A stretch of DNA of 64,000 nt, taken from IMG/VR virus record IMGVR_UViG_2925891887_000001; one strand, written 5' to 3'. The position numbers were made by a program, and so were the translations under genes. The notes beneath the pieces were generated by a model, which was not told the DNA's origin, did no database searches, and worked only from the letters and a program-made list of their open reading frames with translations. The DNA is from a virus (lineage: Duplodnaviria > Heunggongvirae > Uroviricota > Caudoviricetes). Shown one piece after another: positions 12,500-39,154 of this stretch (its first letter is position 1; the number at the start of each line of letters is the position of its first letter).

Positions 12500-12596
12500 T
12501 CTGGTGTCTGTAATTAGCCTGCTTCTGTATATATAAATAACTACATATTAATTATTAATATACGGAAGAAGGCTGTTTTGTATCAGAGACTCCAGA
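12500..12596. repeat. large AT-rich imperfect palindrome, copy 1
   Basis: Outer arms TCTGGTGTCT/AGAGACTCCAGA. Inner arms AGCCTGCTTCTGTATATAT.../...ATATACGGAAGAAGGCT. The 23-nt core CCTGCTTCTGTATATATAAATAA is identical to 39079-39101. Confidence 0.85.
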
Positions 12597-12679
12597 CCTG
12601 AACATCACTACAGAATCCACTAGAACCCCTTCCCAGACGCTTTAAAATCGATTTTATGAACCACTTTAAGGAAACCAAC

Positions 12680-12910
12680 ATGTCATACCCGACTAATGTC
12701 GTTGCGCTCGTAGAGAGCGATTTTCTGGCCCAGGCTCGTGAAATGATGAAAGATCGTGAGCAGGCTTTCAACTTGTACGAATGGGCAATTAAGTGCTTGC
12801 ATCTTGGCGAGCATCGCGAACTTGTTGAACAGCTTTTAGGTGAGTTGATCAATGAGGTGTTTGCCTTGAATGTTCAACTACATGGTAGAGAAAATAATCA
12901 ACCACAATGA
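12680..12910 (+). CDS. hypothetical protein (76 aa)
   Basis: ATG 12680 is preceded by AAGGAAACC. The listed start at 12656 lacks an RBS. Confidence 0.45.
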   Translation: MSYPTNVVALVESDFLAQAREMMKDREQAFNLYEWAIKCLHLGEHRELVEQLLGELINEVFALNVQLHGRENNQPQ

Positions 12911-13405
12911 TAGATAAGTACAAACTATTCATAAAGTGAATTGTAAGTGCTAAGATCTGATAGTTTCCAGTCGTAGACTGGAGACTCGACCTGATGGGTG
13001 GGGGTAAGCGTCACTGGCGTCAGGTTTAAAAAAGCTCACTACCAGCGTAGAACTGGTGCCGTTTAGGTGTCGGGGAAGGGGGAACCAAAGTGAGCAGAGA
13101 CAAGGGTCACTTTATGATTGTCGAGTCTGGGGTGTTTCGAGAGGTTGAATCCAGTACTCCCCTTCATAAAGTGTGGGAAGATCTCGGTTCTGGGGTGCTG
13201 TCATCCATAACTTCCCAAGTCTAAGCTGGCAGTAGACTTAGACCATAACTTTTCAGGTTATGAAACGACCAGGTTGGTGAGAGATTTTTATACTCACCTC
13301 CCTGGGAGAGTATTACCTGAAAAGACAACCTCTCACTTCGTTCGAGGTGAACTTCACTCACTTCGTTCGTTCAGTTCAGGTTTATAAAAACCTGTTCTGG
13401 GAAGT
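12911..13405 (+). other. highly structured non-coding region (candidate ncRNA or origin)
   Basis: No credible ORF. At least nine hairpins or long-range helices readable by eye, including GACTCGAC 12983-12990 with GTCGAGTC 13120-13127. Two diverged tandem units are marked by TTCATAAAGTG (12928, 13163) and AAGATCT (12952, 13178). Confidence 0.4.
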
Positions 13406-13430
13406 AATTTGTTTATTTTAATAATTATTA

Positions 13431-13455
13431 ACACGCACGCGTGTGCGCACGCGCG
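13431..13455. other. 25-nt perfectly alternating purine-pyrimidine GC-rich tract after an AT-rich block
   Basis: ACACGCACGCGTGTGCGCACGCGCG read directly. It is preceded by GTAATTTGTTTATTTTAATAATTATTAA. Confidence 0.9.
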
Positions 13456-13492
13456 AAGAAAAATCGGCGCGGCGCTTGATTCAGGAGTTTAT

Positions 13493-14083
13493 ATGACGAC
13501 GAAGACACCAGCCCGATCGCAAGCAAAAACTCGCAAAAAAGCCAAAAACAAAAATTCCCCCCGCACCAATCCCACAACGCCTGTCGTAGAGTTCAATCCC
13601 CAGCTTAAAACCGTGAAAATCTTTAGTGATGGCTCTTGCCTTAAAAATCCGGGTGGCCCGGGCGGTTACGGTATCGTTCTCCAGTATCGTGGTGAGGAAC
13701 GCGAGTTCTCAGATGGTTTTCATAGCACCACCAATAACCGCATGGAGATGATGGGGGCACTTATCGGGCTGGAGCGTTTGAAATATCCATGCAACGTTAT
13801 TTTGCACTCTGATAGCCAGTATCTGAAAAACGGCATGACACAGTGGATGAAATGGTGGAAACGCAATGGATGGATGACTTCTGACAAAAAACCGGTAAAG
13901 AATGTTGATCTGTGGAAGCGTCTGGATGAGGCCGCAAGTCGACATAATGTTCGCTGGAAGTGGGTTAAAGGTCACGCCGGGCATCGTGAAAATGAAATAT
14001 GTGATCGACTCGCGAAGATCGCAGCTTTTTCAGCAGCAGATATGCCTCACAAGAAAGATATTGGTTTTGTTTATAATAAATAG
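13493..14083 (+). CDS. rnhA: ribonuclease HI with a basic N-terminal extension of about 40 aa
   Basis: From [20 protein letters not shown]...TTNNRMEMM...DSQY...KPVKNVDLW...[18 protein letters not shown] the protein is collinear with E. coli RNase HI as I recall it. ATG 13493 follows CAGGAG. Confidence 0.9.
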
Positions 14084-14231
14084 TAAGTAAGTGTTTACCT
14101 ATCATTTTAAATCATGTATCTTATCGGCGTCAGGATGACAATGTGTCGGTAAGACACAGTTCCAGGATGGAACGAGAAAGGCGGCTGGCAATCGCCAGCC
14201 GCAACTCTTTCTGACACTGGATGGAGTCCAC

Positions 14232-14726
14232 ATGGCACGTCAAACCTATTTCACTTCTGTAACTAAACGCCCTCGTTCTTTACGTCAAATTTTGGCCGAA
14301 TTATTTAGCGGTCGTGTTATGTCACGCCTTGAAGAACTAGAGACTACCGTTCGGTTGCTGAATGAACGTTTAGATAATCAAGCGTCAGTTGTTGCGAACG
14401 TGGGGGCGATTGTTGCCTCTGGCTCTTCACGCGAAGCGAAAAATGCACGGCCTTTAGTGAAGGAGAAAAACAACAAGGACAGTTCGAATGGAAAATTTTC
14501 AAAGAAAGAGGCTGAAACCAATGGCCTACGTTCTCATTATAGTTTCACTGGCGACGGTAGCCGTTCCAGCCGGTCAGAGCCTTTTGATGCCGGATTCATC
14601 CACCACCACACCTTCGTCGACGACAATTATCACCACTCCAGTGGAGCGTCCTGTCACTCTGGATGGGATGGCGGTGGATGCGATACCTCAAGTTCATCCA
14701 GTTACTCAGGATCATGCTGTGACTAA
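14232..14726 (+). CDS. hypothetical protein, C-terminus rich in Ser/Gly/Cys/His (164 aa)
   Basis: ORF with a GGAG RBS. The tail reads SGASCHSGWDGGGCDTSSSSSYSGSCCD. Confidence 0.4.
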   Translation: MARQTYFTSVTKRPRSLRQILAELFSGRVMSRLEELETTVRLLNERLDNQASVVANVGAIVASGSSREAKNARPLVKEKNNKDSSNGKFSKKEAETNGLRSHYSFTGDGSRSSRSEPFDAGFIHHHTFVDDNYHHSSGASCHSGWDGGGCDTSSSSSYSGSCCD

Positions 14727-14739
14727 GGCGGTTGTATGA
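14521..14739 (+). CDS. alternative-frame ORF: small N-terminally anchored Thr/Pro-rich protein (72 aa)
   Basis: MAYVLIIVSLATVAVPAG hydrophobic start. AGAGG lies 10 nt upstream. Its stop overlaps the next ATG (ATGA at 14736-14739). It overlaps ORF 14232-14726 in another frame. Confidence 0.25.
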   Translation: MAYVLIIVSLATVAVPAGQSLLMPDSSTTTPSSTTIITTPVERPVTLDGMAVDAIPQVHPVTQDHAVTKAVV

Positions 14740-14924
14740 ACTGGTTTTCAAATCACTTTGGAAAAATTTGGCTGGCAATTCTTGCCCTCATGGCCGCCGG
14801 TTGGGTATCGAACATTATAAAACTTGTTTGCTCTGGCGATCTCCAGTTTCAGGCTGGCATGACCTTGGCTCGTGTAGTTGGGATTTTTGTTTTTCCAGTT
14901 GGTTCGGTACTTGGTTATTTCTGA
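14736..14924 (+). CDS. small membrane protein (62 aa, 2 predicted TM segments)
   Basis: Hydrophobic stretches IWLAILALMAAGWV and VVGIFVFPVGSVLGYF. Confidence 0.5.
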   Translation: MNWFSNHFGKIWLAILALMAAGWVSNIIKLVCSGDLQFQAGMTLARVVGIFVFPVGSVLGYF

Positions 14925-14967
14925 CGGCTGTTAGTGCATATGCATTGACCATCTCTGCGTAAGCAAT

Positions 14968-14994
14968 TTATGTAATTAGAAAACAACTTGTTTT
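14968..14994 (+). promoter_or_regulatory. promoter/operator cassette
   Basis: TGTAAT -10-like hexamer, then AGAAAACAACTTGTTTT (perfect 15-nt palindrome 14980-14994). Leader AAAGGAAAACACATG. Confidence 0.5.
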
Positions 14995-15017
14995 GACAAA
15001 TAATAAAAGGAAAACAC

Positions 15018-15443
15018 ATGTTAGGTTTCTTCAAAAAGAAAACTCGTAAAGCTGTTATCGAAGTCAAAAAAATGGAGAACCGTGATGCGGTTGAGGCCAC
15101 CGTGTGGGGCGCGTACATGATCTCCTATGCCGACGGCACATGTGACGCAAAAGAAATTGCCATTCTTGAGAAGACAATTGCAGCTCTGCCTGCGTTTTCT
15201 CCGTTTGCTGGTGAAATTGCCCAAATGAGCGCCAATATCCGTGCTCGTTACGAAGCGTCCCCTCGTTCTGCTAATGCACAGGCTATTCGTGAGCTGTCTG
15301 ATATTGCGGGTACTCCAGAGGCGGTCGATGTTCTGTGTCTGTGCCTTGATATTGCCGATCAGGACGGCATTGGTGAACAAGAAGAGCAGGCACTGAAAAA
15401 GATCGCCCAGGCGCTTCAGTTGTCACTGGATGCTTATCTCTAA
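15018..15443 (+). CDS. TerB-like (tellurite-resistance TerB fold) protein
   Basis: Two ADG-x-D/E-xxE repeats (YADGTCDAKEIAILEK and ADQDGIGEQEEQALKKIA), typical of the TerB family. Confidence 0.55.
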   Translation: MLGFFKKKTRKAVIEVKKMENRDAVEATVWGAYMISYADGTCDAKEIAILEKTIAALPAFSPFAGEIAQMSANIRARYEASPRSANAQAIRELSDIAGTPEAVDVLCLCLDIADQDGIGEQEEQALKKIAQALQLSLDAYL

Positions 15444-15601
15444 TGCTTGAGAGATTCCGGCTTGTGATCGTCATTGCTCTTCTGGTGATGGCGGTGTTGG
15501 TGGATTTTACGGGAAAGATGATGTCTGTCATTTCTGATGGCGTCCTCATTGGTCTGGCGATCTACTTCGCTTATCCGCTAGTCCGTAAAGCAACGTGTTA
15601 A
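15443..15601 (+). CDS. small membrane protein (52 aa), below the ORF-track cutoff
   Basis: TAATG overlap with the upstream stop. Translates to MLERFRLVIVIALLVMAVLVDF...GVLIGLAIYFAYPLV with two hydrophobic segments. A terminator follows directly. Confidence 0.45.
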   Translation: MLERFRLVIVIALLVMAVLVDFTGKMMSVISDGVLIGLAIYFAYPLVRKATC

Positions 15602-15604
15602 TGA

Positions 15605-15630
15605 CAAGGGCCAAATGGCCCTTGTGTTTC
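15605..15630 (+). terminator. intrinsic terminator
   Basis: CAAGGGCC/GGCCCTTG stem, AAAT loop, TGTTTC tail. Confidence 0.7.
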
Positions 15631-15690
15631 GTTGACCGAAATAGAGAGTTTGCACCTTTACGTTTAGCTTGCTCCCCTTTTATGCCACAT

Positions 15691-15722
15691 CACAATAAAG
15701 CCAATAAGAAAACAACTTGTTT
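15691..15722 (+). promoter_or_regulatory. promoter/operator cassette
   Basis: CACAATAAAGCCAATAAGAAAACAACTTGTTTA. Leader TAGGAAAAACACATG. Confidence 0.5.
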
Positions 15723-15740
15723 AAGCATTAGGAAAAACAC

Positions 15741-16307
15741 ATGTGCAAGAAATGCAAAGCGATAGCTGATGAACAAAACGCCTTATTCGAAGAAATGGAT
15801 GCTAATGAACTGGTCAAAATGTTAGCCATTCTTCGAGGAATAGAAGACGTTTCCATATTTGAGAGAGTGGTTACAGCACTTAATTTTGAGTCCACCTTTG
15901 AAGAGCCAACTCAGGTTGTAGCTTTAGCACATCATTTCGGTGTTCATTATCTTGCTGAAAAAGAGAGAGCTGATAAGTTGCAAGCGACTTTGGATATGGT
16001 GAGCGAGACTCCAGGACCTCATGACGGTAACAAAAGTGAGACGATTATTGCCAGCAAAGATCGTGAAATTGCCGGGCTTAAATCCTCTCTAACGATGTTG
16101 ATGTCTGCAATTAACCTTATGTCTTCTAAAGCAGGTTATAAAATGCCATCACTAAACAGCGACGATCCGATGGCCGTTCGCCAGCTTTTAGGTGCAATGG
16201 CCGACCAGCTCGAAGACACAAAGAGTCGCCTTGAAGACATGATGCGGGAGCTCACGCATCGCCATGACTTGAATAAGCAGCCGCACAAAACGCAATACGC
16301 ACTCTAA
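15741..16307 (+). CDS. hypothetical coiled-coil protein (188 aa)
   Basis: ORF downstream of a cassette, followed by a terminator. Confidence 0.55.
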   Translation: MCKKCKAIADEQNALFEEMDANELVKMLAILRGIEDVSIFERVVTALNFESTFEEPTQVVALAHHFGVHYLAEKERADKLQATLDMVSETPGPHDGNKSETIIASKDREIAGLKSSLTMLMSAINLMSSKAGYKMPSLNSDDPMAVRQLLGAMADQLEDTKSRLEDMMRELTHRHDLNKQPHKTQYAL

Positions 16308-16324
16308 TACAGCACCAGTCGACA

Positions 16325-16346
16325 GGGGGCGACAGCCCCCATTTTT
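16325..16346 (+). terminator. intrinsic terminator
   Basis: GGGGGC/GCCCCC stem, GACA loop, ATTTTT tail. Confidence 0.75.
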
Positions 16347-16401
16347 ACGCCTTAAATCTGCTGTAACGCCTATGAATGCAGCTTTTATGCCTTTTCAAGT
16401 T

Positions 16402-16436
16402 TGCGATAATTACACCAATCAGAAAACAAATTATTT
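16402..16436 (+). promoter_or_regulatory. promoter/operator cassette
   Basis: Extended -10 TGCGATAAT (16402-16410), then AGAAAACAAATTATTT (16421-16436). Confidence 0.55.
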
Positions 16437-16448
16437 AATGGTGTAATT

Positions 16449-18134
16449 ATGAATACAGCCCTTTCCATCATCGACGATGCCAGCTCAAACACGGCTATCG
16501 ACTATCGTCAGGAAATGAATGTCATCCACGAAATCGTGGCCGAGTGCGAGAAAGAGATCGCCTTCATGTATCAGGTACACGACTTCGTTTATGGCGACGA
16601 ACGCCACAACATGATTAATCGCCTGCTGAGACTAAACCATCGACCAGATGAAGATCGCTCGCGTTTAAATCGAGGTTGGTTGGATAAAGTCGATCTGGAA
16701 TGGGTGAAACAGAATATTTGGGCCGAGTACTGGAGGAAGGTCACGGACATGACTAACGTTTTGCTGATCATGCCAGCTTCCCGTCGAGATGAGTGGCGCG
16801 AGCAGTTTATAGAGGGCAAACAGGAAGTCATCAAAACTGACAGAACCGGCTACCAGATGAAGGTTAAAGAGTTCGTTGGTGTACCGGAGTTCAAAGCAGA
16901 AACGGTCATACCCACGATGCTTAATTTGCTGAATGACAGGCACAAATATCTCTCTGAGCGCGTGTATGGCTTGTTTAAGGCGCTGAGTCCTGCGCACAAG
17001 ACAAATAAGACAAACGGTTTCAGCGAGCGGCTGATAATCGCTGACTGCATTTCTGATTTCTGGCGGGACAGCGTTAGCGTGAACTATCGCAAAGAGGACT
17101 ACATCGACGATCTGCGTGTCTTGCTTCATTTCTTCGCGCACAAAGAATTTATTACCATCAATCGCACTGCTGAGGTGCTATCAGCTGCGTATCGGGCAAA
17201 CGACTGCCAGACCGGTGACTGGATGAACGTCGATGGAAATCTGATGCGCGTGAAGATGTTCAAGAACGGCAACGTTCACTTTGAAATACATCCTGACGTG
17301 GCCTGGAAGTTGAATGAGGTGCTGGCTTACAGTATGCCTGCTGCAATCCCCGCGCCATGTCGCACCGCGCCAAAAACACGGGCACCAAAGCAGTTCGGGT
17401 TAATCCAGAAGACGATCTCCGTGCCGGTTCGCACTGCGCTTCGTGACGGGCGATTGAGCAAAGACAAAGGCGTATGGTACTTCTCTGATTCAGCTCTCCA
17501 GAAGTCGCAGGTGGAAGAGCTTGAGCGCACACTGAGCTTCATTGGCGGCGTGCAGGAGAAAAAACACTGGCAGTTCCCGTATGAGATCGGCCATACGCTA
17601 AATACGATTGTGGCTACCGGATTAATACCGGATACAAAATCACACCAGTTCTACCCTACCCCACGCTTGATTGCTGAGTACGTTGCCAGAGCCACTGAAT
17701 TGAAGTCTGGTGAGAAGCTGCTGGAGCCTCAAGCCGGACGTGGGGATCTTCTGGCCTATATCAACGCCGATCTGGAAGATGTTACCTGCATAGAAATCGC
17801 ACCTCTCTTCGCTGATATCCTGCGCGGAAAAGGGTATACGAACACGATTTGCTGCGACTTCATAAAGTGGTCTGAGGACAACGTAGGTTATCAGTTCGAC
17901 AAAATCGTTATGAACCCGCCGTACTCGCTTGGTCGTCATAGAGAGCACACGCTGGCTGCGCTGGGGCATCTGAAAGTCGGCGGGCGTCTTGTAGCAGTAT
18001 TGCCGGGCACTGCGCCAATACTGGACTGGATGACGATGGATAATTACGTTTATGCCAGAGGGAAGTCGTTTACCAACGAGTTTGAAGACACAGGGATCAC
18101 AGTCAGCGTATACGTTTTCAAACGCGTTAAATGA
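16449..18134 (+). CDS. N6-adenine DNA methyltransferase with an N-terminal domain of about 400 aa of unknown function
   Basis: C-terminal SAM motif LLEPQAGRGDLL and catalytic IVMNPPYS. The N-terminal two thirds have no motif I recognise. Confidence 0.7.
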   Translation: MNTALSIIDDASSNTAIDYRQEMNVIHEIVAECEKEIAFMYQVHDFVYGDERHNMINRLLRLNHRPDEDRSRLNRGWLDKVDLEWVKQNIWAEYWRKVTDMTNVLLIMPASRRDEWREQFIEGKQEVIKTDRTGYQMKVKEFVGVPEFKAETVIPTMLNLLNDRHKYLSERVYGLFKALSPAHKTNKTNGFSERLIIADCISDFWRDSVSVNYRKEDYIDDLRVLLHFFAHKEFITINRTAEVLSAAYRANDCQTGDWMNVDGNLMRVKMFKNGNVHFEIHPDVAWKLNEVLAYSMPAAIPAPCRTAPKTRAPKQFGLIQKTISVPVRTALRDGRLSKDKGVWYFSDSALQKSQVEELERTLSFIGGVQEKKHWQFPYEIGHTLNTIVATGLIPDTKSHQFYPTPRLIAEYVARATELKSGEKLLEPQAGRGDLLAYINADLEDVTCIEIAPLFADILRGKGYTNTICCDFIKWSEDNVGYQFDKIVMNPPYSLGRHREHTLAALGHLKVGGRLVAVLPGTAPILDWMTMDNYVYARGKSFTNEFEDTGITVSVYVFKRVK

Positions 18135-18153
18135 TAGGTAAATACTTACTTAG
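18133..18153. repeat. GTAAGTA-type palindrome (GATAGGTAAATACTTACTTAG)
   Basis: Overlaps the stop codon of the methyltransferase gene. Confidence 0.65.
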
Positions 18154-18194
18154 TTTATGTAAGAATGTAGTAACTAAACGATAAGAGAAAACAC

Positions 18195-18899
18195 ATGAGC
18201 AACCTCCAGTTAGAGCATTTTAACGTCACAGGCCATTCCGATTTTCCTTTCAAGTTTACATTGAAAGGTTATGCAGAGGATGCGGTAGGCCAGATCATTA
18301 TTGATAAAGACATCGTTAAGTTTGAGGGGAATTTTGATGAATCCGCGAAAACATTCATAGACTTCGTTGCCAAACGTTGGAGCGAGCAATGGAAAAACCT
18401 GGAAAAGCGCGCCAATGAGTTTGATCGGTTCATGGATGCAATGGATACAGCAAAAGAGGCTCTTGATGCCGGGACTCCGTTAGATCTGGAGTCACTTTTC
18501 AACGGCGAAGTGGCCTCTGCGATGTTCGCCACCATGTTCGCGGGTGAGTTCGTCCGCAGCGGTGCCAAAAACTACCTTGAGCTGGATTACAACGTCCCTG
18601 CAATTGGCGATTTCGTCGTTACCATCCAACGCAAAGAAGGTAAGACGCCAGGTGAACGCGTCGCAGAGCTTGAGGCCGTTGTGGATCAGCGTAACGGAGA
18701 GTGTGACCGTTTGATCAACGAGCTTCATGCACTTCGGGAAGAAAGAATATGTGCGGGTAGCAATACACGTAATGCAGCGGATATCTACTTCCAGTTAGTT
18801 GAGGAATGCCAGATTCCACCAGGTGGCTCTCTTGTCGATTACGTCAGACATTTAATGGCGGAAGTTAACTCCAGCCATAAAGATGGTGAGGTGCGCTGA
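18195..18899 (+). CDS. hypothetical protein (234 aa)
   Basis: ORF with the AGAGAAAACACATG leader. Confidence 0.55.
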   Translation: MSNLQLEHFNVTGHSDFPFKFTLKGYAEDAVGQIIIDKDIVKFEGNFDESAKTFIDFVAKRWSEQWKNLEKRANEFDRFMDAMDTAKEALDAGTPLDLESLFNGEVASAMFATMFAGEFVRSGAKNYLELDYNVPAIGDFVVTIQRKEGKTPGERVAELEAVVDQRNGECDRLINELHALREERICAGSNTRNAADIYFQLVEECQIPPGGSLVDYVRHLMAEVNSSHKDGEVR

Positions 18900-19398: not shown

Positions 19399-19441
19399 AT
19401 GTCTAGTATTTCCGAAGCTCATATGTTCGCCGCTGGCGCTC
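19399..19441 (+). pseudogene. phage ORF truncated after 14 codons by an IS1 end
   Basis: ATG 19399 follows GGAG. MSSISEAHMFAAGAR runs straight into the IS1 terminal repeat at 19442. Confidence 0.6.
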
Positions 19442-19568
19442 GGTGATGCTGCCAACTTACTGATTTAGTGTATGATGGTGTTTTTGAGGTGCTCCAGTGG
19501 CTTCTGTTTCTATCAGCTGTCCCTCCTGTTCAGCTACTGACGGGGTGGTGCGTAACGGCAAAAGCACC
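19442..19568 (+). mobile_element. IS1 left-end fragment (127 bp: IRL plus first 24 codons of insA)
   Basis: Exact reverse complement of 55086-55212, the end of the complete IS1 in this window. Starts GGTGATGCTGCCAACTTACTGAT. Similarity stops after AAAGCACC. Confidence 0.95.
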
Positions 19569-19577
19569 ACCTTTTTA

Positions 19578-24927: not shown

Positions 24928-25673
24928 CCGTAATTCTACGCAGCAGATAGCGCTACAGCGTCCAAATTTCACCACAGACGACTCAACACACTACCAACAA
25001 AAACACACGCTCAAAATCGCTCCCGTTGCGTTACACAACCATATAAACAACTTATTTTCAGGTATAACAAAACAACTAAATAACACACATGCCATTACCC
25101 AAAACAACCAACCTCTTTATGGCAGGCTACCGAAAAGACCCACCTCTTCTCCCCAGGCTACCGGACAACCAACCTAACTTTCACAGGCAATCCGAAAACA
25201 TTCATACGCGCGATACCCACGACACGCCATTACCCAAACAGCGAAGAAACACCAGAATCACTGAAAACCCAACGAAGCCTGTTACCGCAAGGATTCTCTC
25301 AATCCCAAAAGACACGAAACAGAACAATCACGGGAAACGCCATTACCCAATACACGAATAACTACAAAAGCCTTTCACACACTCCAGACAAACAACTCAA
25401 ACACAATAACGAAAGGAATCGCCCACCTGCCATTACTCCATACACGGAGAAGAACAATCACCAAAACGACGAGAACACCCCATAGAAGAACCACCGCAAA
25501 ACGAACGAAACCACATACACCGACAGAGAGAACAACACACCCAATTCACCAACAGAAATAGTCGCCGTATAGAACGTTCTGGAAGGAGTGAGCATTAACG
25601 CCTATAGAGAGGTTGAGACAGATAAAACACAACATGTATAGCGAAGAAGCCAGGTATGTATAAGTGGGGAGGG

Positions 25674-26580: not shown

Positions 26581-26617
26581 TGGTATTGTTTACGCAATTT
26601 AGAAAACAACATGTTTA
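26581..26617 (+). promoter_or_regulatory. promoter/operator cassette
   Basis: TGGTATTGT, then AGAAAACAACATGTTTA. The 57-bp unit 26561-26617 is duplicated at 27045-27101. Confidence 0.55.
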
Positions 26618-26628
26618 AGGATTGCTTT

Positions 26629-27064: not shown

Positions 27065-27101
27065 TGGTATTATTTACGCCATTGAGAAAACAAGTTGTTT
27101 A
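27065..27101 (+). promoter_or_regulatory. promoter/operator cassette
   Basis: TGGTATTAT, then GAGAAAACAAGTTGTTTA. Confidence 0.55.
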
Positions 27102-27111
27102 CGGAGTTGTA

Positions 27112-28583: not shown

Positions 28584-28734
28584 TTATTAAGGCCATCAGC
28601 ATTGGTGGCCTTAAATGACCATCTTGTTTCCCGCAGGCTAAAAACACCAACCTCTTACCTCCAGGCAACCGACAAACCCACCTGTTCCCGTCCGGCTACC
28701 GCAACTTTCCACTTTGACGCCTTATTCGTACAAC

Positions 28735-28766
28735 GATAATTAACACCAACAAGAAAACAATTTGTT
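28735..28766 (+). promoter_or_regulatory. promoter/operator cassette
   Basis: GATAAT (28735-28740), with TTGACG at 28714-28719. Then AAAACAATTTGTT (28754-28766). Confidence 0.55.
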
Positions 28767-28787
28767 ATTTACGATAAGGAATTAATC

Positions 28788-29270
28788 ATGAATTTTATCG
28801 CTACTGTAAACGCACCCGCACATGGCAATATCGCTGTAACGTTCTCTGACATTGAAAAACGAGTACTTGGTGCATGGCGCGACAATGAGACGGTAGAACT
28901 GTCAGCACAAGAAAAATGCATTATTGCACGCGACATCATTGGCAATCGTCGTTACTCGCGGGTATTTGAGAAAGCGTATGTGGTAAATTCTGGATTCGGA
29001 ACGTTCGTCTTTCCGGTGCGCTCCGGGCGATTCTGCCAGTCCAAGCTGATTGAGTTCGCTACGCAGATTTCTTTCTGGATTAAAACTCAATCGTCGTTCA
29101 AATTTTCCGACGATGAAGCAGTATCGCAGGGGATGCGGATCGCCAACAATGCAATTAAATGCAAAAACATTACGTATACCGCTGGCGTTGATACATGGAA
29201 ACTGTTTTGCGCTAACTTTATGCTGAATGTATACGCAAGCAACCGCATCCACATCCTTGATGGCGTGTAA
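28788..29270 (+). CDS. hypothetical protein (160 aa)
   Basis: ORF after TAAGGAAT. Confidence 0.55.
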   Translation: MNFIATVNAPAHGNIAVTFSDIEKRVLGAWRDNETVELSAQEKCIIARDIIGNRRYSRVFEKAYVVNSGFGTFVFPVRSGRFCQSKLIEFATQISFWIKTQSSFKFSDDEAVSQGMRIANNAIKCKNITYTAGVDTWKLFCANFMLNVYASNRIHILDGV

Positions 29271-29276
29271 CTGAGA

Positions 29277-29847: not shown

Positions 29848-29871
29848 AAAAAAGCGCCCATAGTGGGCGCT
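29848..29871 (-). terminator. intrinsic terminator (first of a tandem pair)
   Basis: AGCGCCCA/TGGGCGCT stem with T5 on the minus strand. The same hairpin family occurs at 30349-30369. Confidence 0.75.
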
Positions 29872-29876
29872 CGATT

Positions 29877-30107
29877 TTATTTGTGTAAACTGATTTTAAA
29901 TCCCATTTCTACGAACGCTTTTAACATTAAAAATATATCAGCGTCGTTCACGTCTGCTTTTTTTCGCTCCTGGTCGCTCAATAAGTCAATTTTGCGCGTC
30001 GTTTCATCTATAAGCTCGACTACACGCCCAGCGTAACCAGCGATCCCAGCGATGCGATTAACATAATATTCATTATGGACGTTAACGCCAGCGATAAGAA
30101 CAAACAT
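29877..30107 (-). CDS. hypothetical protein (76 aa)
   Basis: ORF in the AT-rich island with AAGGAG upstream on the minus strand. Confidence 0.45.
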   Translation of the reverse strand: MFVLIAGVNVHNEYYVNRIAGIAGYAGRVVELIDETTRKIDLLSDQERKKADVNDADIFLMLKAFVEMGFKISLHK

Positions 30108-30332: not shown

Positions 30333-30380
30333 CTTTAAAGCTCCTTTAAAGCGCCCATTGTGGGCGCTTGATTCCATTAA

Positions 30381-31040: not shown

Positions 31041-31284
31041 CCTTACGAAAAATTAAAATGAATTTATTTTTTACTGTCGTTAGCTAGCTCGCTTTCGACG
31101 AGTTCAATTATCGATACGTGAAAAAAGATTGCAAGTATTTTTTTTAAATTTTCTGCAGGGATGAAAGTCCTAGAAATAAAAGCGAGATCGTCGAAGGTGT
31201 TCCCTAAATAAATAATCAATTCGGGCCTTTAACCTTATATATTTATACGGAGTGGCATCGAAAGAGTTTTAAATGAATGGCATG

Positions 31285-32462: not shown

Positions 32463-32951
32463 TTATTTAACATCACACTTTCTAATTTTTTCTATTTGTT
32501 CTAATTTTTCATGATCATCATTTAGATTTCCTTTGACTATCTCCGTTTCAAGTTTGCTGATTAGCATGTTAAGTGCGTTGTAGTTATTGCATTTTACTTT
32601 GTAGGCGTAGTATGACCTTGTCCCTGGTTTTTGTACACCCATATCATTAAAGTTAGAGCTTAAAGTATAACCTTCAAGTTCAACCCCTTTTATTGTTGGA
32701 AGAATTATATTTAATGGTTCTAATTTAAATGGGTAGATATAAATATGTGATATGAAGTACTCTTCTGAAGAGATTTTCTTCATGTCTTTTGTGATTGAAA
32801 CTGAATATTTACGGTCCCGAGCGATATAAAATTTTGTACATTTGTACGGCTCTAAGTTGAATAGATAATATCTGTCTTTAAAAAGAACATCTTTTCCATG
32901 TGATATTTTATGTCGTAAAGAGTTAATTATTTTGTTTATAGAAATACTCAT
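32463..32951 (-). CDS. hypothetical protein (162 aa), extremely AT-rich gene
   Basis: K/I/Y/N-rich ORF. First gene of an apparent three-gene operon. Confidence 0.5.
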   Translation of the reverse strand: MSISINKIINSLRHKISHGKDVLFKDRYYLFNLEPYKCTKFYIARDRKYSVSITKDMKKISSEEYFISHIYIYPFKLEPLNIILPTIKGVELEGYTLSSNFNDMGVQKPGTRSYYAYKVKCNNYNALNMLISKLETEIVKGNLNDDHEKLEQIEKIRKCDVK

Positions 32952-33096
32952 CTACAGTATCCGACCTTAGTTATCAATTGAAAAGCCTACAAATATCGTT
33001 CAGCCAATCAAGAAATTTTTTCAGCCGGAGGTATGTACTTCAAAAAATGTGATGAATGTCACATGCAGGTGCTCTCATACACCTGCATGTAGACTA

Positions 33097-33663
33097 TTAA
33101 TCATTCAATAATCTATATTTTCTTTTGATTAAATCTTCACCTTTTTTGGTGAACACAAAACCAAATTGCGATTTTTTGTTCAGCCTAAGGACTCTGTTAT
33201 CCAACGCATCGGTTGATGGAATCAATGTTTGATCATCTATCCAATTAAGTAGCGTAAGAAAGTTCAGCAGCCTCAACGTTGTTGTGCGAAGCTCTTTCGA
33301 TATATTTTCAATGCTGGCAATTCGTCTTTCTTTTTTCTCAGGTGGTACAGATAATTGTTCTTGAGGTTTCGTGGGTAGATAATCAATTTCGTTTGCTGAA
33401 TCGAATGATATGTGTGGCGTAATTTTGCTAAAAAAGCCTTTCGCTGACTCACTTGATAATAAACCAGACCTATTCATATCGTTTGTTATTCTGTACAGGA
33501 GTGGACTGTGTTTCATTTCAGGATAACGTTGATAAAAGTTAAGCAATTCAAAAGCAGCATTAGCACCAACAAGAAAATCAGAAGGATCGCTGACTTTCCA
33601 GAAAGAATGATTTTTCTTAGCGCCAGTGGTGTCAACAAATGATAATTCTTTTAACCAACTCAT
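33097..33663 (-). CDS. hypothetical protein (188 aa)
   Basis: ATG 33663 follows AAAGGAGC. A hairpin at 33061-33090 lies downstream. Confidence 0.5.
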   Translation of the reverse strand: MSWLKELSFVDTTGAKKNHSFWKVSDPSDFLVGANAAFELLNFYQRYPEMKHSPLLYRITNDMNRSGLLSSESAKGFFSKITPHISFDSANEIDYLPTKPQEQLSVPPEKKERRIASIENISKELRTTTLRLLNFLTLLNWIDDQTLIPSTDALDNRVLRLNKKSQFGFVFTKKGEDLIKRKYRLLND

Positions 33664-33728
33664 GATGTGCTCCTTTCTAACAAGTGAGCACATCATAGAA
33701 TTAGTAGATAGGGGGTAAATATGAAATG

Positions 33729-34007
33729 TTACGGCAACCTGCTCAGTATTTCCTCTAGATCTTTTTTTGTCATATTGGAGTTCTCATAGATGCGCATGAT
33801 TTTCTCACGCGTCTTAGCGGAAACCCCAACGGCAGATGTGACTTTGTCAAATTCAGCCATAGTCATCGTCTCCAGAATGGCATTGATAACTTCAGCCTTA
33901 GACATCTTGATTTTTTTCTCTTTGAGTTTTATTTGAAATTTTCCAAGTTTTTCATTGGCCTTATCAGACAATGCCACTTGGCAATAAGTTGTTTTCTTTT
34001 CGCTCAT
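33729..34007 (-). CDS. hypothetical protein (92 aa)
   Basis: Start lies 2 nt downstream of the helicase stop. Confidence 0.5.
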   Translation of the reverse strand: MSEKKTTYCQVALSDKANEKLGKFQIKLKEKKIKMSKAEVINAILETMTMAEFDKVTSAVGVSAKTREKIMRIYENSNMTKKDLEEILSRLP

Positions 34008-34009
34008 AA

Positions 34010-35569
34010 CTAATCTCGTTTCAGAACTCCAAAATCGAATGCGCCATCAACAGGCAATACACCTTCTGCAAAGCCAGGTGTGGTGTCGATGATGTGTTTT
34101 CGCTCATAAGAGTGAGACAACAGGTATTTGTTGCTAATGTCAATGAAATCAGTGATAAAACACACGTTTGCCTGATTCTTCTTGGCTCGTAAGCCACGAC
34201 CGACACGTTGTCTCATTTCAACTTCTGCTTTCCCACCACCAGCAAGAATGACCGCACCAACGCTTGGCACATCAACACCGACATCCAGAATAGTCGAGCC
34301 TATTAAAACATCTATGTCGCCAGACGCTAAACTGTTCAGCTTTGCTTGCCTTGTCGACTGGTTCGATTCCCCATAAATGAAGTCAACTCTAAGGCCGGAC
34401 TCTTTCATCATTTCCATCAGGATTTGCCCGTGGCGTTTAAGACGAACCAGAGTCATACAATTGAGAGAATGTTGCTTATAGAGCAATGCTTCGCGAACAA
34501 TGGCCTCATTACGTCCCAAATTATACACGATCCCCAACTGATAAGCCTTTTGGTAGGCAGTGCTCATACCTACTCTAAAATTGAGGTGTTTGTTGGCAAG
34601 TTCTGCCTTGATTCTGGCCTCGTCCGGCTTGTAGGCAACTTTATGATAAAGGAAGTATGGCTTTGCCAGAATGCCTCTATCAATCAGGTACTTTTCCGTG
34701 ACTTTTATTTCAATTCGCCCGGCCACTGCCATCAGACGCATGTTGGCTTCCGTAGAATCCTTCATGAACGGCGTTGCCGTAAGCGCCAGGCGATAGTCTG
34801 CGTTCGCACATAATCTGGCAATGTCATAGAAATTAGAGCCTGAAGACTCATGCGCCTCTTCCAGAATAAGAAGAGAGACACTTGAAAGGAAGCGTTTCAC
34901 CAAGTCCCGACGTTTGAGGTGGTAGCTCTTCTTATCTGGAGTTGCATCGCGTGGTGGTTCTTCAAGGAAACTTGCCAGAGTTTGAACTGTAGCGACGTTG
35001 ATATGTCGTGATACCTGGAACTCACCCGAGCCAATGACTCCAACCTTTTGGTCTTTTAACCACGGTTCGCCATTTTCGGCGCGGTAGTCGATGGATCTCT
35101 GGAAGTTTTCGGCCATCTGAAACATCAGAACAGAGCGGGTTGTTAAAAATAATGTCATTCGACCGATACGTGCAGCTGCTTTGCAGGCAACATTAGATTT
35201 CCCGCCACCAGTAGCGATCTGCGCAATCATCATTCCCTCTCGAACCAGTGTTTCCACAGTCTGATCCTGATATGCATAATCAGGATTGTATGGGAATGGG
35301 TTGACCGCCGGATTTGGCTTTCCAAGCGCCGGAGCTTTGTCTTTGCGGATATGAACACATTTGATGCCCGCCTTGTTCAAGTTCGCCGCTACAGGCTTGG
35401 CAAAGCCAGCAGGGAACGAGTTTTTACTCCAGTTGAACATCGTGCTTGTGCCCTTCCAGTCGCCAGTCTCGACTTCGTAGCTCAACATCTGTTGCACCAG
35501 TTGCTTTACCTTGTCATCTGCGCCAGAAATAAGTGCATTTACTGCGTTAGATACAATCCGAACAGTCAT
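34010..35569 (-). CDS. SF2 (DEAH-type) DNA helicase
   Basis: Motif I IATGGGKS, motif II LILEEAHE, motif III LTATP, motifs V-VI VGVDVPSVGAVILAGG...QRVGRGLR. Confidence 0.85.
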   Translation of the reverse strand: MTVRIVSNAVNALISGADDKVKQLVQQMLSYEVETGDWKGTSTMFNWSKNSFPAGFAKPVAANLNKAGIKCVHIRKDKAPALGKPNPAVNPFPYNPDYAYQDQTVETLVREGMMIAQIATGGGKSNVACKAAARIGRMTLFLTTRSVLMFQMAENFQRSIDYRAENGEPWLKDQKVGVIGSGEFQVSRHINVATVQTLASFLEEPPRDATPDKKSYHLKRRDLVKRFLSSVSLLILEEAHESSGSNFYDIARLCANADYRLALTATPFMKDSTEANMRLMAVAGRIEIKVTEKYLIDRGILAKPYFLYHKVAYKPDEARIKAELANKHLNFRVGMSTAYQKAYQLGIVYNLGRNEAIVREALLYKQHSLNCMTLVRLKRHGQILMEMMKESGLRVDFIYGESNQSTRQAKLNSLASGDIDVLIGSTILDVGVDVPSVGAVILAGGGKAEVEMRQRVGRGLRAKKNQANVCFITDFIDISNKYLLSHSYERKHIIDTTPGFAEGVLPVDGAFDFGVLKRD

Positions 35570-35633
35570 AAACCTCTTTCCTTAGTGCCTTTTGTATGTT
35601 ATTTGGCTATTATAATAAGTAAGTGATTACTTA

Positions 35634-36332
35634 ATGGATTGTAGCAATAAAATGGATGTAAAAATCACGATTTTGCAGGTTGATGTTGCCAACCTTCGCC
35701 CGAATACCTGGAACACCAATTCGGTTGGTGCGCAGAATTTCGAAAAACTGAAAGGTTCTATCGAAAAATTGGGCTTTTTTAAGCCAATTTTGGCTCGTGA
35801 ACTTGAAGATGGATTTTTTGAAATCCTCGGCGGCGAACATCGCTGGCGTGCCGCTATTGAGCAAGGAATTTCAACGGTTCCGGTGCTTTCTGTGGGCAAA
35901 ATTAGCGATGTCGTAGCTAAACAGATGTCACTGGTGGACAACGAGCGATACGGTGAAGACGACCAAATCGCATTGCAACGCTTCATTGAAGAAATTCAGT
36001 CAGAGCTTGACTATCAACTGTCTGAAATCGCCCCGTATGACGACGAAATCTCGATGGTTTTAGCAAAAGAGGCGGCAATCGACCTTGAAGCACTGGAGGC
36101 GTTGTCTCGTGGTAGTGATGAGCCTGTCGATACCGACAAACGAGAGAAAACCGAACGTGTGGGTGCGGAACATCAGACCATGCGCTTCAAAGTAACTTTC
36201 GATGCGTCAGATCGTGTTGCAGAAACCATAAAAAACATCATTAAAGAGCAGGCTATTAACACCGGTAATGAAATGGAGAACGCTGGTGAGGCTCTGGTGT
36301 GGCTGGTCGACTACTACAAGGAGCGTATGTAA
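35634..36332 (+). CDS. ParB/Srx-fold N-terminal domain protein 1
   Basis: LRPNTWNTN...FKPILARELEDGFFEILGGEHRWRAAIEQGISTVPV matches the ParB N-terminal domain GxxR box. Acidic C-terminus. Confidence 0.65.
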   Translation: MDCSNKMDVKITILQVDVANLRPNTWNTNSVGAQNFEKLKGSIEKLGFFKPILARELEDGFFEILGGEHRWRAAIEQGISTVPVLSVGKISDVVAKQMSLVDNERYGEDDQIALQRFIEEIQSELDYQLSEIAPYDDEISMVLAKEAAIDLEALEALSRGSDEPVDTDKREKTERVGAEHQTMRFKVTFDASDRVAETIKNIIKEQAINTGNEMENAGEALVWLVDYYKERM

Positions 36333-37000
36333 TGACCAAAAAGTTTGAAATCGTATATCGCGACCCGGCAGATCTTATTCCCTATGAGATGAATGCCAAA
36401 AAGCATGATGAACAGCAGATCCGAGATCTGGCCGCAGCCATTAAAAAGCGCGGATTTGACCAGCCAATTACGGTCGATAAGAACGACGTAATTATTACTG
36501 GCCACGGCCGCCGTGAGGCTGCAATTTTTGCTGGACTTGAGCGCGTACCGGTTATTGTTCGCGATGATCTCAGTGATGACGAGGTTCGTGCGAAGCGCCT
36601 TGAAGATAACCGACTTGCCAGCATTGATTACGATGCAATTAAGCTACAGAAAGAGCTTGAGTCGCTTGTTCTGGACGATATCGAGGTTTTCGGCTTTGAA
36701 GAGCGTGAGTTGAATGTTCTCGTTGGCAGTATGACAGAAGAAATGGACACCGACTCGCTAGTTATCGATCTTGGCGAAGAAACTAAACGACAGAAGGATG
36801 AACACACCGTGATCAGTCGTGAAGTTGCAGCGGAAGAAGTACGTGTTGTCGACGTATTGGGCTTTAAAACGCTCCCTGCTGGCTCTGCCATTGTTGTTGG
36901 TGATTTGCTTGCCCACATGGAAGAAATGACGGGAGAAAGCGGGGTAGACGCATTTGTGGCATATGCGGAGAAGATCTCTTCCGGGGAGATGGCTGCATGA
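36332..37000 (+). CDS. ParB/Srx-fold N-terminal domain protein 2
   Basis: LIPYEMNAKKH...FDQPITVDKNDVIITGHGRREAAIFAGLERVPVIV. TAATG overlap with the upstream gene. Confidence 0.65.
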   Translation: MTKKFEIVYRDPADLIPYEMNAKKHDEQQIRDLAAAIKKRGFDQPITVDKNDVIITGHGRREAAIFAGLERVPVIVRDDLSDDEVRAKRLEDNRLASIDYDAIKLQKELESLVLDDIEVFGFEERELNVLVGSMTEEMDTDSLVIDLGEETKRQKDEHTVISREVAAEEVRVVDVLGFKTLPAGSAIVVGDLLAHMEEMTGESGVDAFVAYAEKISSGEMAA

Positions 37001-37635
37001 GCAAATACATCATCAACGTATCGTTTCAGACACGCGTAAATAAAACCACGCGCACGTTGGAAATCGCTGAGTCGTTCGGGCTTGGCCTGGACGAAAAAGA
37101 GTGGACGCTTTACGACAATCTGGAGCTGGAAGTGAAGCAGGGCGATGTGGTGTACATTACCGGCCAATCCGGTTCCGGCAAATCCGTTGTGCTGCGCGAG
37201 CTGCAACACCAGATGAAGGATGAAGGGCTATCTGTGGCCTCCATCGATGATTTTACCTTCGATAATGAGGTTAACGTCATTGACCAACTGGGCAAAACTA
37301 CCAGTGATGCGCTTGGGTTGTTATCTATGGCTGGTCTGAACGATGCATATCTGTTTGTTCGCAAGCCTTCTGAAATGTCAGACGGTCAGAAATATCGTCT
37401 CAAGATTGCCAAACTGATTGAGTCAGGCGCTAAAGTGTGGGCTGCTGACGAGTTCGGCGCTGTTCTCGACCGTGTAACCGCTCAGGTTGTGGCATCTAAC
37501 CTCCAGCGTGCCGCTCGAAAGGTTGGTGCGACGGTAATGGTGGCGACGACTCACGAAGACCTGAAGAACGCGCTGCGCCCGGATATGCAGATCACCAAGC
37601 ACTACAAAGAACGCGTGAAGGTGGAATATGCCTGA
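36997..37635 (+). CDS. stand-alone ABC-type ATPase
   Basis: Walker A ITGQSGSGKSV, signature-like MSDGQKYRLKIA, Walker B VWAADEFGAVLD, H-loop ATTHE. ATGA overlap. Confidence 0.7.
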   Translation: MSKYIINVSFQTRVNKTTRTLEIAESFGLGLDEKEWTLYDNLELEVKQGDVVYITGQSGSGKSVVLRELQHQMKDEGLSVASIDDFTFDNEVNVIDQLGKTTSDALGLLSMAGLNDAYLFVRKPSEMSDGQKYRLKIAKLIESGAKVWAADEFGAVLDRVTAQVVASNLQRAARKVGATVMVATTHEDLKNALRPDMQITKHYKERVKVEYA

Positions 37636-37882
37636 TTTGAAGATCGTAGAGCTGAAGCCATCGAAAGAGACTGATAACAACAACGTGGAAGTCATCCGCC
37701 TGCTGGAAGAAGCACTTCAGCACGCCAGAGAAGGAAAAAGCCAGAGCCTGGCGCTGTTGATGATCAACAACGACGGCAGTGTTCTTGATTGCTGGCATAA
37801 CGGCGGGCGCCCGTATGTCATGGTAGGGGCGATGGAGTCTCTTCGCCTGGATTTCATCAATGCCAATATCGAGCGCAGGTGA
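37628..37882 (+). CDS. hypothetical protein (84 aa)
   Basis: Overlaps the upstream gene by 8 nt and the downstream gene by 4 nt. Confidence 0.5.
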   Translation: MPDLKIVELKPSKETDNNNVEVIRLLEEALQHAREGKSQSLALLMINNDGSVLDCWHNGGRPYVMVGAMESLRLDFINANIERR

Positions 37883-38778
37883 TCGAGATGGCAGATATCA
37901 TCATCAAACGCTACCGCCCTGAAGAGTTTCCGCGTCATCTGGACTTTCTGGAGCGAATGACTGTCACAAAGGGAACTGTAGAGGACTGGCACGCTCTTAA
38001 GTCGCTTCACTACAAAACAGACGGCAAACCTTTCGCGCCAACTTACTATCGCTGCGAACTTGATGACCGTCTGGTGGGCGTCGTGGTTATGGCTTACCCG
38101 AAACTACTGCTGGCACCTCGCCACCGCATGTTTCCTAAGTTGAAACCAACCACTAATACCACCGTGGCTAACCAGTACTGGGGTCGGTACGTGAATAACA
38201 ACTTTGCGGTGATCAGTCGCTCAGTTGTGGATACTCAGTATCGTGGCGTAGGCGTCTCTTATCGAATGATTAACCTGGTTAGCAGGATGCATGACCGGCC
38301 AATCATTGAGATCCAGTCCTCGATGAGCAAATACAATCCCTTCGCCATGAAAGCAGGGTTTAAGTTCATCCGCCCTGAGCGACCGAAGAGCTATGAAAGT
38401 GCACTGCGTGTATTCCAGCGCCATTTCCGTTCCGACCCGGGTGATAACGAGGCGATCGTCAAAGAGTTGTTCGCAATGAGCGAGTCTCGTCGTCGCCGTG
38501 CACTGCGTGATCTGGTGGCGGACTACCACAAGAACAGTTCCCTGGCAAAAGCTGGGCGGAATCGTGGCACGACGATTCAGGACATTGCCGACAGTCTGGT
38601 GGACGAGGCCAGCATTGTGAAGCTGCTCAAGGACATTCACAACCTGAGCTTTACGTCTCCGTTGTATGGTGTGTACCGAAACCCTGACTTTGGCCGTCGA
38701 CTGCCTGACACGCTGCCACTGCTGGCATTCGACAAACAACCTTTGGATAAACCGTTAGAAATTGCTTTACCGGCATAA
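37879..38778 (+). CDS. GNAT-fold acyltransferase-like protein with a C-terminal extension
   Basis: FAVISRSVVDTQYRGVGVSYRMINLV matches GNAT motif A (R/Q-x-x-G-x-G/A). SKYNPFAMKAGFKFI matches motif B. Confidence 0.55.
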   Translation: MIEMADIIIKRYRPEEFPRHLDFLERMTVTKGTVEDWHALKSLHYKTDGKPFAPTYYRCELDDRLVGVVVMAYPKLLLAPRHRMFPKLKPTTNTTVANQYWGRYVNNNFAVISRSVVDTQYRGVGVSYRMINLVSRMHDRPIIEIQSSMSKYNPFAMKAGFKFIRPERPKSYESALRVFQRHFRSDPGDNEAIVKELFAMSESRRRRALRDLVADYHKNSSLAKAGRNRGTTIQDIADSLVDEASIVKLLKDIHNLSFTSPLYGVYRNPDFGRRLPDTLPLLAFDKQPLDKPLEIALPA

Positions 38779-38787
38779 GGATTTGCC

Positions 38788-39054
38788 ATGACGTTAACCG
38801 ATAAACAAAAGGACATCATCAAAACGCTCAATCTCGGTTATGAGCGAGGTCATCTACTTGACCTGGACGAATTGCTTGAAGTTTTGCCGTACAAGACAAC
38901 CAAGCAAAGTATCCAGTTCTCAATTCGCGCTCTGATAAAAAAGGGGCTGGTGGAGAAAGGGCATACGCGCCAACGCAGTGACAATCGCTATCACCGCCGA
39001 ACTCTTGGGTTAACTACTTTAGGTCGAGCCAAAGCGAAGTTACTGGTGATGTAA
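38788..39054 (+). CDS. small winged-helix-like DNA-binding protein
   Basis: LDELLEVLPYKTTKQSIQFSIRALIKKGLVEK resembles a MarR/wHTH recognition helix followed by a wing. Confidence 0.4.
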   Translation: MTLTDKQKDIIKTLNLGYERGHLLDLDELLEVLPYKTTKQSIQFSIRALIKKGLVEKGHTRQRSDNRYHRRTLGLTTLGRAKAKLLVM

Positions 39055-39056
39055 TC

Positions 39057-39154
39057 GGTCTGGGAGCTTATTTAAAGACCTGCTTCTGTATATATAAATA
39101 ATAAGTAACTTATTAAATATATACGGAAGCAGGCTTCGTAAGACATGCCAGACC
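39057..39154. repeat. large AT-rich imperfect palindrome, copy 2
   Basis: Outer arms GGTCTGG (39057-39063) and CCAGACC (39148-39154). Inner arms CCTGCTTCTGTATATATAAATAATAAGT/ACTTATTAAATATATACGGAAGCAGG. Paralogue of 12500-12596. Confidence 0.85.

Follow-up and report, generated by a model that had tools for sequence, protein, structure and literature searches.

Two Intergenic Palindromes in an SSU5-like Phage-Plasmid

The 64,000-nucleotide stretch of DNA analyzed here (IMG/VR record IMGVR_UViG_2925891887_000001; hereafter the window, whose numbering is used unless another record is named) comes from an SSU5-like phage-plasmid near E. coli pLF82/Cyrano, in which nearly all genes are transcribed in one direction round the circular genome. 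Two imperfect palindromes of ~97 bp, which we call copy B and copy A, lie at 12500-12596 and 39057-39154, where the original prediction, made from the letters of the window, had placed them. The flanking genes are also those that had been described: a Dam-family gene precedes copy B, and a putative winged helix-turn-helix (wHTH) gene and terS lie on either side of copy A. Together with their flanks, the elements are 99–100% identical to those of "Escherichia phage CMS-2020a" (CP053388), 97–99% identical to those of Cyrano/pLF82 (OV696614) and PhiR41_1, and ~75–82% identical to those of Salmonella phage SSU5 and Klebsiella relatives. The two copies are made up as follows.

12500..12596, + strand: copy B, of the class found after the Dam gene
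12500-12504 and 12592-12596, + strand: outer boxes of copy B, TCTGG and CCAGA
12518-12533, + strand: inner left box of copy B, CCTGCTTCTGTATATA
12534-12556, + strand: centre of copy B, A/T-only
12557-12572, + strand: inner right box of copy B, AATATACGGAAGAAGG, with 2 mismatches against the left box
12576-12579, + strand: T-run of copy B, TTTT, 3 nt past the inner hairpin and without a matching A-run upstream
39057..39154, + strand: copy A, of the class found between the putative wHTH gene and terS
39057-39063 and 39148-39154, + strand: outer arms of copy A, GGTCTGG and CCAGACC
39079-39094, + strand: inner left box of copy A
Centre of copy A, + strand: A/T-rich, with the apex TAAGTAACTTA
39118-39133, + strand: inner right box of copy A, TATATACGGAAGCAGG; no T-run follows copy A

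The 23-nt core that the copies had been said to share is identical in both. The 23-mer CCTGCTTCTGTATATATAAATAA occurs exactly twice in the window (12518-12540 and 39079-39101), with 0 matches expected by chance, and none of 100 dinucleotide shuffles contained a core-like match, even when 3 mismatches were allowed. The 16-nt arm CCTGCTTCYGTATATA is found at only four sites in the window, which are the two arms of each element. The outer TCTGG/CCAGA arms that had been noted are likewise present, at 12500-12504/12592-12596 in copy B and at 39059-39063/39148-39152 in copy A.

All copies, including those that we found in relatives, are intergenic. Their general order is an outer box TCTGG(G)AG, a spacer of ~15 nt, the inner box CCTGCTTCYGTATATA, the centre, the inverted inner box, and the inverted outer box CTCCCAGA. 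The centre is A/T-only and 25–35 bp long; in the common lineages it is self-complementary, with the apex TAAGTnACTTA, and the number of TA repeats differs among variants. The likeness of the centre to a LexA box, to Xer/dif sites, or to an IHF site, judged by eye, is superficial only, and these candidates were rejected.

Both copies fold into long hairpins (−33 and −48 kcal/mol), a capacity that the original prediction had attributed to them. As + strand RNA, copy B gave −32.9 kcal/mol (z = −5.3) and copy A gave −48.4 kcal/mol (z = −10.3), and no shuffled sequence folded as well as either copy. The corresponding DNA folds were −16.8 kcal/mol for copy B and −24.1 kcal/mol for copy A. The + strand folds contain 37–41 predicted pairs, which is above the ~20 bp of double-stranded RNA needed in an RNase III site, and the inner stem is clamped by CCTGC/GCAGG, giving the hairpin the stable GC-rich base expected of a terminator. 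A search of the window against Rfam produced no match at the gathering score; permissive thresholds were also run, and the only sub-threshold matches were microRNA-precursor look-alikes.

A Third Copy Marks the Junctions of Three Gene Blocks

A scan of viral contigs with the arm as query returned more than 100 true instances, which were sorted by their flanks into three classes. Members of class A lie between the wHTH gene and terS, members of class B lie after Dam, and members of class C lie upstream of a conserved 241–246-aa protein that is followed by a DnaB-like helicase and a primase. The observation made in the window is thereby extended to a conserved three-copy family. Copy C is at 28763-28889 in CP053388, at 31149-31254 in Cyrano, and at 33458-33559 in SSU5. 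In CP053388 it lies 32.7 kb beyond copy A, which corresponds to ~71.8 kb in window numbering and falls outside the 64-kb window.

The original prediction had treated the two palindromes as a closed pair that brackets 26.5 kb. Close relatives have the third copy ~32.7 kb downstream of A, past the end of the window, and the bracketing is an artefact of where the window ends: the three copies cut the circle into arcs of ~31, 47, and 30 kb. On the 108-kb circle of Cyrano, the sites are at 0, 31.2, and 78.1 kb, and the arcs between them (roughly 29%, 43%, and 28% of the circle) match functional gene blocks. In both Cyrano and SSU5, the three sites are the junctions of these blocks. The block closed by C contains late, lysis, toxin-antitoxin, and parA genes. 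The block closed by B contains genes for replication, recombination, nucleotide metabolism, and immunity, together with repA, and ends at Dam (DNA metabolism). The block closed by A contains accessory mini-operons and the genes for two ParB_N proteins and ABC-type ATPases, and ends at the putative wHTH gene.

The original prediction had called for a search of relatives, both for the element and for rearrangements between its copies. The three positions proved to be conserved in E. coli, Salmonella, Klebsiella, and Kluyvera. Among ~120 instances there were no rearrangements between copies and no hybrid flank combinations, which speaks against the proposed role in recombination or resolution between copies. 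We found no description of the element in the searched literature on SSU5, pHCM2, or Cyrano.

The 241–246-aa protein encoded downstream of copy C (L125 6632-7357, SSU5_038; orthologues P0001-P0030) always precedes the DnaB-like helicase. An alignment of 20 sequences, with identities down to 46%, has 59 invariant columns, and searches of Pfam, of the PDB, and for a matching fold gave no match to this protein. The 20-mer TCCCTTCCGTTTCCACTTCC, located outside the window in the interval that separates copy C from the next gene, is identical in the E. coli, Salmonella, and Klebsiella lineages and was found at 64 loci in the viral-contig scan (for example, L021 1426-1445).

The Element Appears Essentially Confined to SSU5-like Phage-Plasmids

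The element is present in 799 PLSDB plasmids, from Klebsiella, Escherichia, Enterobacter, Yersinia, Salmonella, Citrobacter, and Cronobacter, and in 259 of 5426 complete E. coli genomes. In the latter, plasmids account for 1043 of its 1045 places, with the same three loci occupied every time, and the single chromosomal case is an integrated phage-plasmid fragment. A degenerate pattern of the two arms, applied to one genome per species for 185,579 species, matched 10 loci only, all of which are SSU5-like by flank comparison. Judged by this distribution, the element appears to occur essentially only in SSU5-like phage-plasmids. A chromosomal repeat family (REP, ERIC, or MITE) was rejected, as the element is plasmid-borne, has fixed positions, and is found at 10 loci across the 185,579 species. 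A scan that used the end of the wHTH gene as its pattern was too unspecific; every true A locus that it recovered holds the palindrome.

Some relatives have fewer copies, or altered ones. Y. pestis pMT1 has copy A only, kept together with the terminase and capsid genes. In CP057895, a 70-kb deletion derivative, copies B and C are kept and copy A has been lost along with the structural genes, a case that is uninformative on function. Gene content varies strongly in the upstream flank of copy C, where at least 10 contexts occur, and some of the breakpoints are right at the inner box. The A locus of a Raoultella relative (L297 2780-2960) is turned inside out, with a right-type arm (TATATATCGGAAGCAGG) first and a left-type arm (CCTGCTCCTCATATAT) 43 nt after it.

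The Two Arms Change Together

Over the first 14 arm positions of 41 unique cores, in-register pairing was 95.5%, as against 31–57% in shifted registers. Pair 9 is C-G in 14 cores, T-G in 17, T-A in 6, and C-A in 4. A T-A at pair 8 is confined to the Klebsiella B copy (CTTTCG/CGAAAG), and the A and C copies of that lineage differ. At pairs 10–12, both sides are changed in the Raoultella C copy (CCCCAT/ATGGGG). That the arms change on both sides together indicates that their pairing is under selection.

The sequence of the box evolves in concert within a lineage, so that each lineage has its own variant, common to its copies. The box is ATGGGAGCAAGG in copies A and B of Xenorhabdus, GGAGCACGG in copies B and C of Morganella, and GGAAGCAGG in the common lineages. 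As both the pairing and a lineage-specific sequence are maintained, the near-identity of the box among the copies of one genome could be the product of gene conversion, of a coevolving sequence-specific trans-acting factor, or of both.

The Elements as Candidate Transcript Boundaries

We favor the interpretation, with a probability of about 0.4, that the elements would act as long-hairpin terminators or insulators that close the three co-directional gene blocks, with one element at the end of each large block. Copies A and B lie between co-directional genes of the + strand and start 2–5 nt past the upstream stop codon. The features around them are as follows.

11901..12494, + strand: Dam-family adenine methyltransferase gene (Pfam Dam, E = 2.9e-38), with its stop codon 5 nt before copy B
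12656..12910, + strand: small open reading frame downstream of copy B (phrog_5343)
38788..39054, + strand: gene for an 88-aa putative winged-helix protein (phrog_900; weak matches to helix-turn-helix regulators only), with its stop codon 2–4 nt before copy A
39168..39213, + strand: two copies of a promoter/operator-like motif (CAGAAAACAAGTTGG and GTAAACAAGTTGTTTTAG); many operons of the genome have this motif upstream
39210..39241, + strand: short GC hairpin with a T-run in the terS leader, resembling an ordinary intrinsic terminator
39250-39882 and 39882-41138, + strand: terS and terL, the first genes of the structural block

In RNA from the + strand, a GC-clamped inner stem (CCTGCTTCYGTATATA with its complement) would form and would be extended by an A/U-rich upper stem and by an outer helix of TCTGG with CCAGA, and a U-run would follow the hairpin in copies B and C. 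Read-through transcripts entering the next block would be stopped or trimmed, and the upstream 3' end would be protected. Copy A, which has no U-run and stands just ahead of the late operon's promoter-like motifs and leader, would be an insulator or a processing hairpin, and would be long enough to serve as an RNase III substrate. We infer from these comparisons that actual termination or processing may take place at the elements.

A T-run of at least four within 10 nt past the inner right box is present in 6 of 7 flank variants of copy B and in all 10 of copy C, and none of 29 variants has an A-run of at least four before the left box. Relatives show terminator signatures at the same sites. 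In A copies of the K. michiganensis type (L300, L304), the homologous hairpin is followed by a T8AT6 or similar run; in B copies of the K. oxytoca type (L377, L379, L381, L386), a decayed palindrome lies beside a new GC hairpin with T5; and in Morganella copy C, a short box-derived hairpin is followed by a T-rich tract. In the window, copy A is followed by the promoter/operator-like motifs and the leader hairpin in a terminator-promoter-leader layout. The one-sided T-run, the signatures in relatives, and the layout after copy A together favor transcript-boundary hairpins on the + strand. Among the roles first proposed for the palindromes, the bidirectional terminator has thus gained the most comparative support, as a terminator of the + strand; its bidirectional part did not stand, because the T-run is on the downstream side only.

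Several observations weigh against this interpretation. In the common lineages, the T-run is absent from copy A (0 of 12 variants), and the U-runs at copies B and C are short, at 4 to 6 T. The + strand of the window has ~26 ordinary terminators consisting of a GC hairpin and a T-run; the A/T-centred palindromes of ~100 bp thus form a class of their own, whose size far exceeds what termination calls for. There is no strand preference in fold energy (of 50 unique elements, the + strand gives the better fold in 26 and the − strand in 24), and G-T and A-C mismatches occur on both strands; these fold-energy and wobble-pair tests do not separate a function at the RNA level from one at the DNA level. 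The box is conserved more than its flanks and is common to a lineage's copies, neither of which is needed for plain termination. The genes on either side of copy C are divergently transcribed in the commonest E. coli lineage. Lastly, in copy C of one variant (L153, two loci), the whole core, including a T-G mismatch, is inverted relative to its flanks.

The inversion in L153 resembles the "flip" and "flop" orientations that are known for some viral terminal palindromes.

It is also possible, if doubtful, that the palindromes are control sites recognized sequence-specifically, at the RNA or the DNA level, rather than passive hairpins. They may be regulated "gates," at which a phage factor would switch between termination and antitermination at the three block junctions. 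At the DNA level, they may be dispersed centromere or silencer sites, or they may be cruciform entry points at which RuvC-like, SbcCD-like, and UvsX-like machinery would start lytic replication from the circular plasmid prophage. The lineage-specific box common to all copies of a genome, the A/T-only core, and the outer boxes speak for a reading of this kind.

Two features of the sequence between copy A and terS can be noted separately. The leader hairpin at 39210-39241 has the promoter-like motif on one side and the terS ribosome-binding site on the other, a position from which it could attenuate the late operon. The promoter-like motif is a repeated 30-nt sequence, TTACRCCAAT.AAGAAAACAAnTTGTTTAAG, found upstream of many mini-operons, of terS, and of parA. 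At least 11 copies lie at 4748-31901 (for example, at 15696-15725, 16410-16439, 26590-26619, and 27074-27103), in addition to those at 39168-39213; in Cyrano (L128), it is found at 29250-29275, upstream of parA. Its appearance is that of a sigma-70-type promoter in which a palindromic operator (AAACAAnTTGTTT) is embedded.

Replication, Partition, Recombination, and Packaging as Alternative Roles

Two alternatives would place the function of the palindromes in the DNA. The original prediction had named a secondary origin among the possible roles. We think it unlikely that they are lytic replication origins or initiation sites, in which inverted recognition boxes would surround an easily melted A/T core that is able to extrude as a cruciform. 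In one version, a phage protein bound at the site would load the DnaB-like helicase of the phage; in another, RuvC-like or SbcCD-like phage nucleases would cut the hairpin or cruciform and so start recombination-dependent replication. An A/T-only centre of 25–35 bp between GC-rich inverted boxes is what would be expected of an unwinding element, and copy C is directly upstream of the conserved protein, the DnaB-like helicase, and the primase. The phage encodes a full replisome together with a gp32-like single-stranded DNA-binding protein, UvsY, and RecA/UvsX-like, SbcCD-like, and RuvC-like proteins, and the plasmid RepA is the only annotated initiator. Conservation of the box, with lineage-specific variants, fits recognition by a protein, and the lack of strand bias in fold energy is consistent with an origin. 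However, within ~350 nt we found no DnaA or IHF consensus and no iterons, the protein downstream of copy C has no informative fold, a one-sided T-run is unexpected for a symmetric DNA site, and some lineages let their copies decay yet keep a terminator at the site. We regard it as distinctly unlikely that the copies are dispersed centromere or silencing sites, bound either by the small protein encoded after a type-Ib ParA or by the two ParB_N-domain proteins. The phage-plasmid N15, with four dispersed palindromic centromeres, pSM19035, with three parS sites, and RK2, with its KorB operators, offer parallels. Upstream of copy C are parA and a gene of 96–130 aa, which in Raoultella are immediately adjacent to it; no repeat array of the usual centromere kind was found upstream of parA; copy A is directly downstream of the operon with the two ParB_N proteins; and the sites are dispersed, leaving arcs of roughly 29%, 43%, and 28% of the circle between them. 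Against this, the boxes are unlike the parS consensus, there is no par gene near copy B, Y. pestis pMT1 retains copy A alone, and a palindrome of 100 bp with a 35-bp A/T spacer is atypical of known centromeres; centromere function would also leave the asymmetry of the T-run unexplained.

The remaining alternatives concern the exchange and packaging of the genome. A recombination linker or selfish repeat, which would persist through homologous block exchange between co-infecting relatives or spread by gene conversion without a function of its own, is in our view improbable. It would account for the homogenization of copies within a genome, for the high variability of the upstream flank of copy C (at least 10 contexts, some with breakpoints at the inner box), and for the one inverted-core variant (L153). 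It would not account for the retention of the same three positions across deep divergence, the lack of hybrid flank combinations, the absence of the element from chromosomes except in phage-plasmid fragments, or the maintenance of arm pairing by two-sided changes. We consider it very improbable that the element is a pac or cos site, at which terminase would recognize or cut copy A, with the other copies possibly serving as extra headful starts. The part of the original proposal of a packaging or termini site that stands concerns copy A: it is directly upstream of terS (~95 nt in every lineage examined, an adjacency to the packaging genes that holds for A only), and the linear SSU5 record (JQ965645) has both of its ends within it, at a distance of 8 nt from the dyad centre. 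This break falls between ...ACTTATTA and AATATATACGG, at 39115/39116 of the window, and the Cyrano record is opened one base away. What does not fit is that copies B and C are equally conserved, 30–47 kb from the packaging genes. A cos site is expected to be unique, whereas each genome has three homologous copies; with three cos sites, the genome would be cut into pieces of less than full length, which would be lethal, and three pac sites are possible but unmotivated. No bases are lost or duplicated at the SSU5 join relative to the plasmid copies, as would be expected of a break placed arbitrarily, or by assembly, in a repeated palindrome. In the Cyrano paper (PMC9928086), no mapping of termini is reported; the matching break in the Cyrano record was therefore probably aligned to or copied from SSU5. 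In the literature, we found no terminus mapping for SSU5, pHCM2, or Cyrano. TerL is ~25% identical to both T5-like terminases (long terminal repeats) and Jersey-like terminases (headful) and so predicts no packaging mode. Overall, the case for packaging is weak.

Draft contigs of relatives often end at the palindromes, as is expected for a repeat of 55 nt. A protelomerase target (telRL of the N15 type) was rejected: there is no protelomerase in the Cyrano annotation, and the plasmid and phage records of relatives that were examined are circular.

Other Repeats in the Window

The longest repeat of the window is a 132-nt inverted repeat at 19440-19571 and 55083-55214, whose arms are 99% complementary and 35.5 kb apart. 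Two iteron-like clusters of ~30-nt head-to-tail units (AAAACAACCAACCTC...CAGGCTACCG) are found at 25101-25197 and 28640-28705, 3.5 kb apart. A hairpin that resembles an ordinary terminator (AAAGCGCCCAT.GTGGGCGCT followed by a T-run) is duplicated at 29851-29881 and 30348-30378, 497 nt apart. In the tail gene region, three repeats with a period of 99 nt lie within a coding region at 61078-61326.

Significance and Comparison with Known Systems

SSU5-like phage-plasmids are common in clinical Enterobacterales and can carry resistance genes, and the element is present in ~5% of complete E. coli genomes. A conserved cis element in three copies, at the junctions of the late, replication, and accessory blocks, provides a concrete handle on the control of the lytic programme, the replication switch, and packaging in these phage-plasmids, one that lends itself to deletion, to mapping, and to use as a bait. 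The tendency of assemblies and records in this family to break at these points is also explained by the element, whose near-identical 55-nt core is a specific marker of the SSU5-like family.

The elements share with intrinsic terminators a GC-based hairpin at the end of a transcription unit, and copies B and C also have a T-run, confined to the downstream side. They differ in having a stem of at least 40 pairs with an A/T-only upper part, in the lack of a T-run at copy A, and in a near-identical sequence that is found in three paralogues and is conserved across hosts, in a genome that has ~26 terminators of the usual size. The RNase III processing hairpins of phage T7 are long and intergenic, lie just after stop codons in co-directional polycistronic units, are similar to one another at paralogous sites, and carry characteristic internal loops. 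The elements described here have the same placement and the same resemblance among paralogues; in contrast to the T7 sites, they are symmetric DNA palindromes with outer boxes, known so far from their sequence.

The centromeres of N15, the parS sites of pSM19035, and the KorB operators of RK2 are also few, scattered, and palindromic, including sites beside late genes, and have par-type genes nearby. Those sites are short (about 13–16 bp) or are arrays of heptads, whereas the elements, compared here as sequences, are ~100 bp long with a 35-bp A/T spacer. The herpes simplex origins oriS and oriL have inverted recognition boxes and an A/T-rich centre, and are present in about three copies between transcription units. 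The elements match this design of boxes and centre, the copy number, and the placement between units; the one-sided T-run is foreign to oriS and oriL, and the likeness is one of sequence arrangement. Like REP/BIME and ERIC sequences, the elements are imperfect intergenic palindromes that lie in transcribed regions near stop codons and evolve in concert; unlike them, they are not chromosomal repeats, and 1043 of their 1045 places in E. coli are on plasmids of a single family, at the same three loci.

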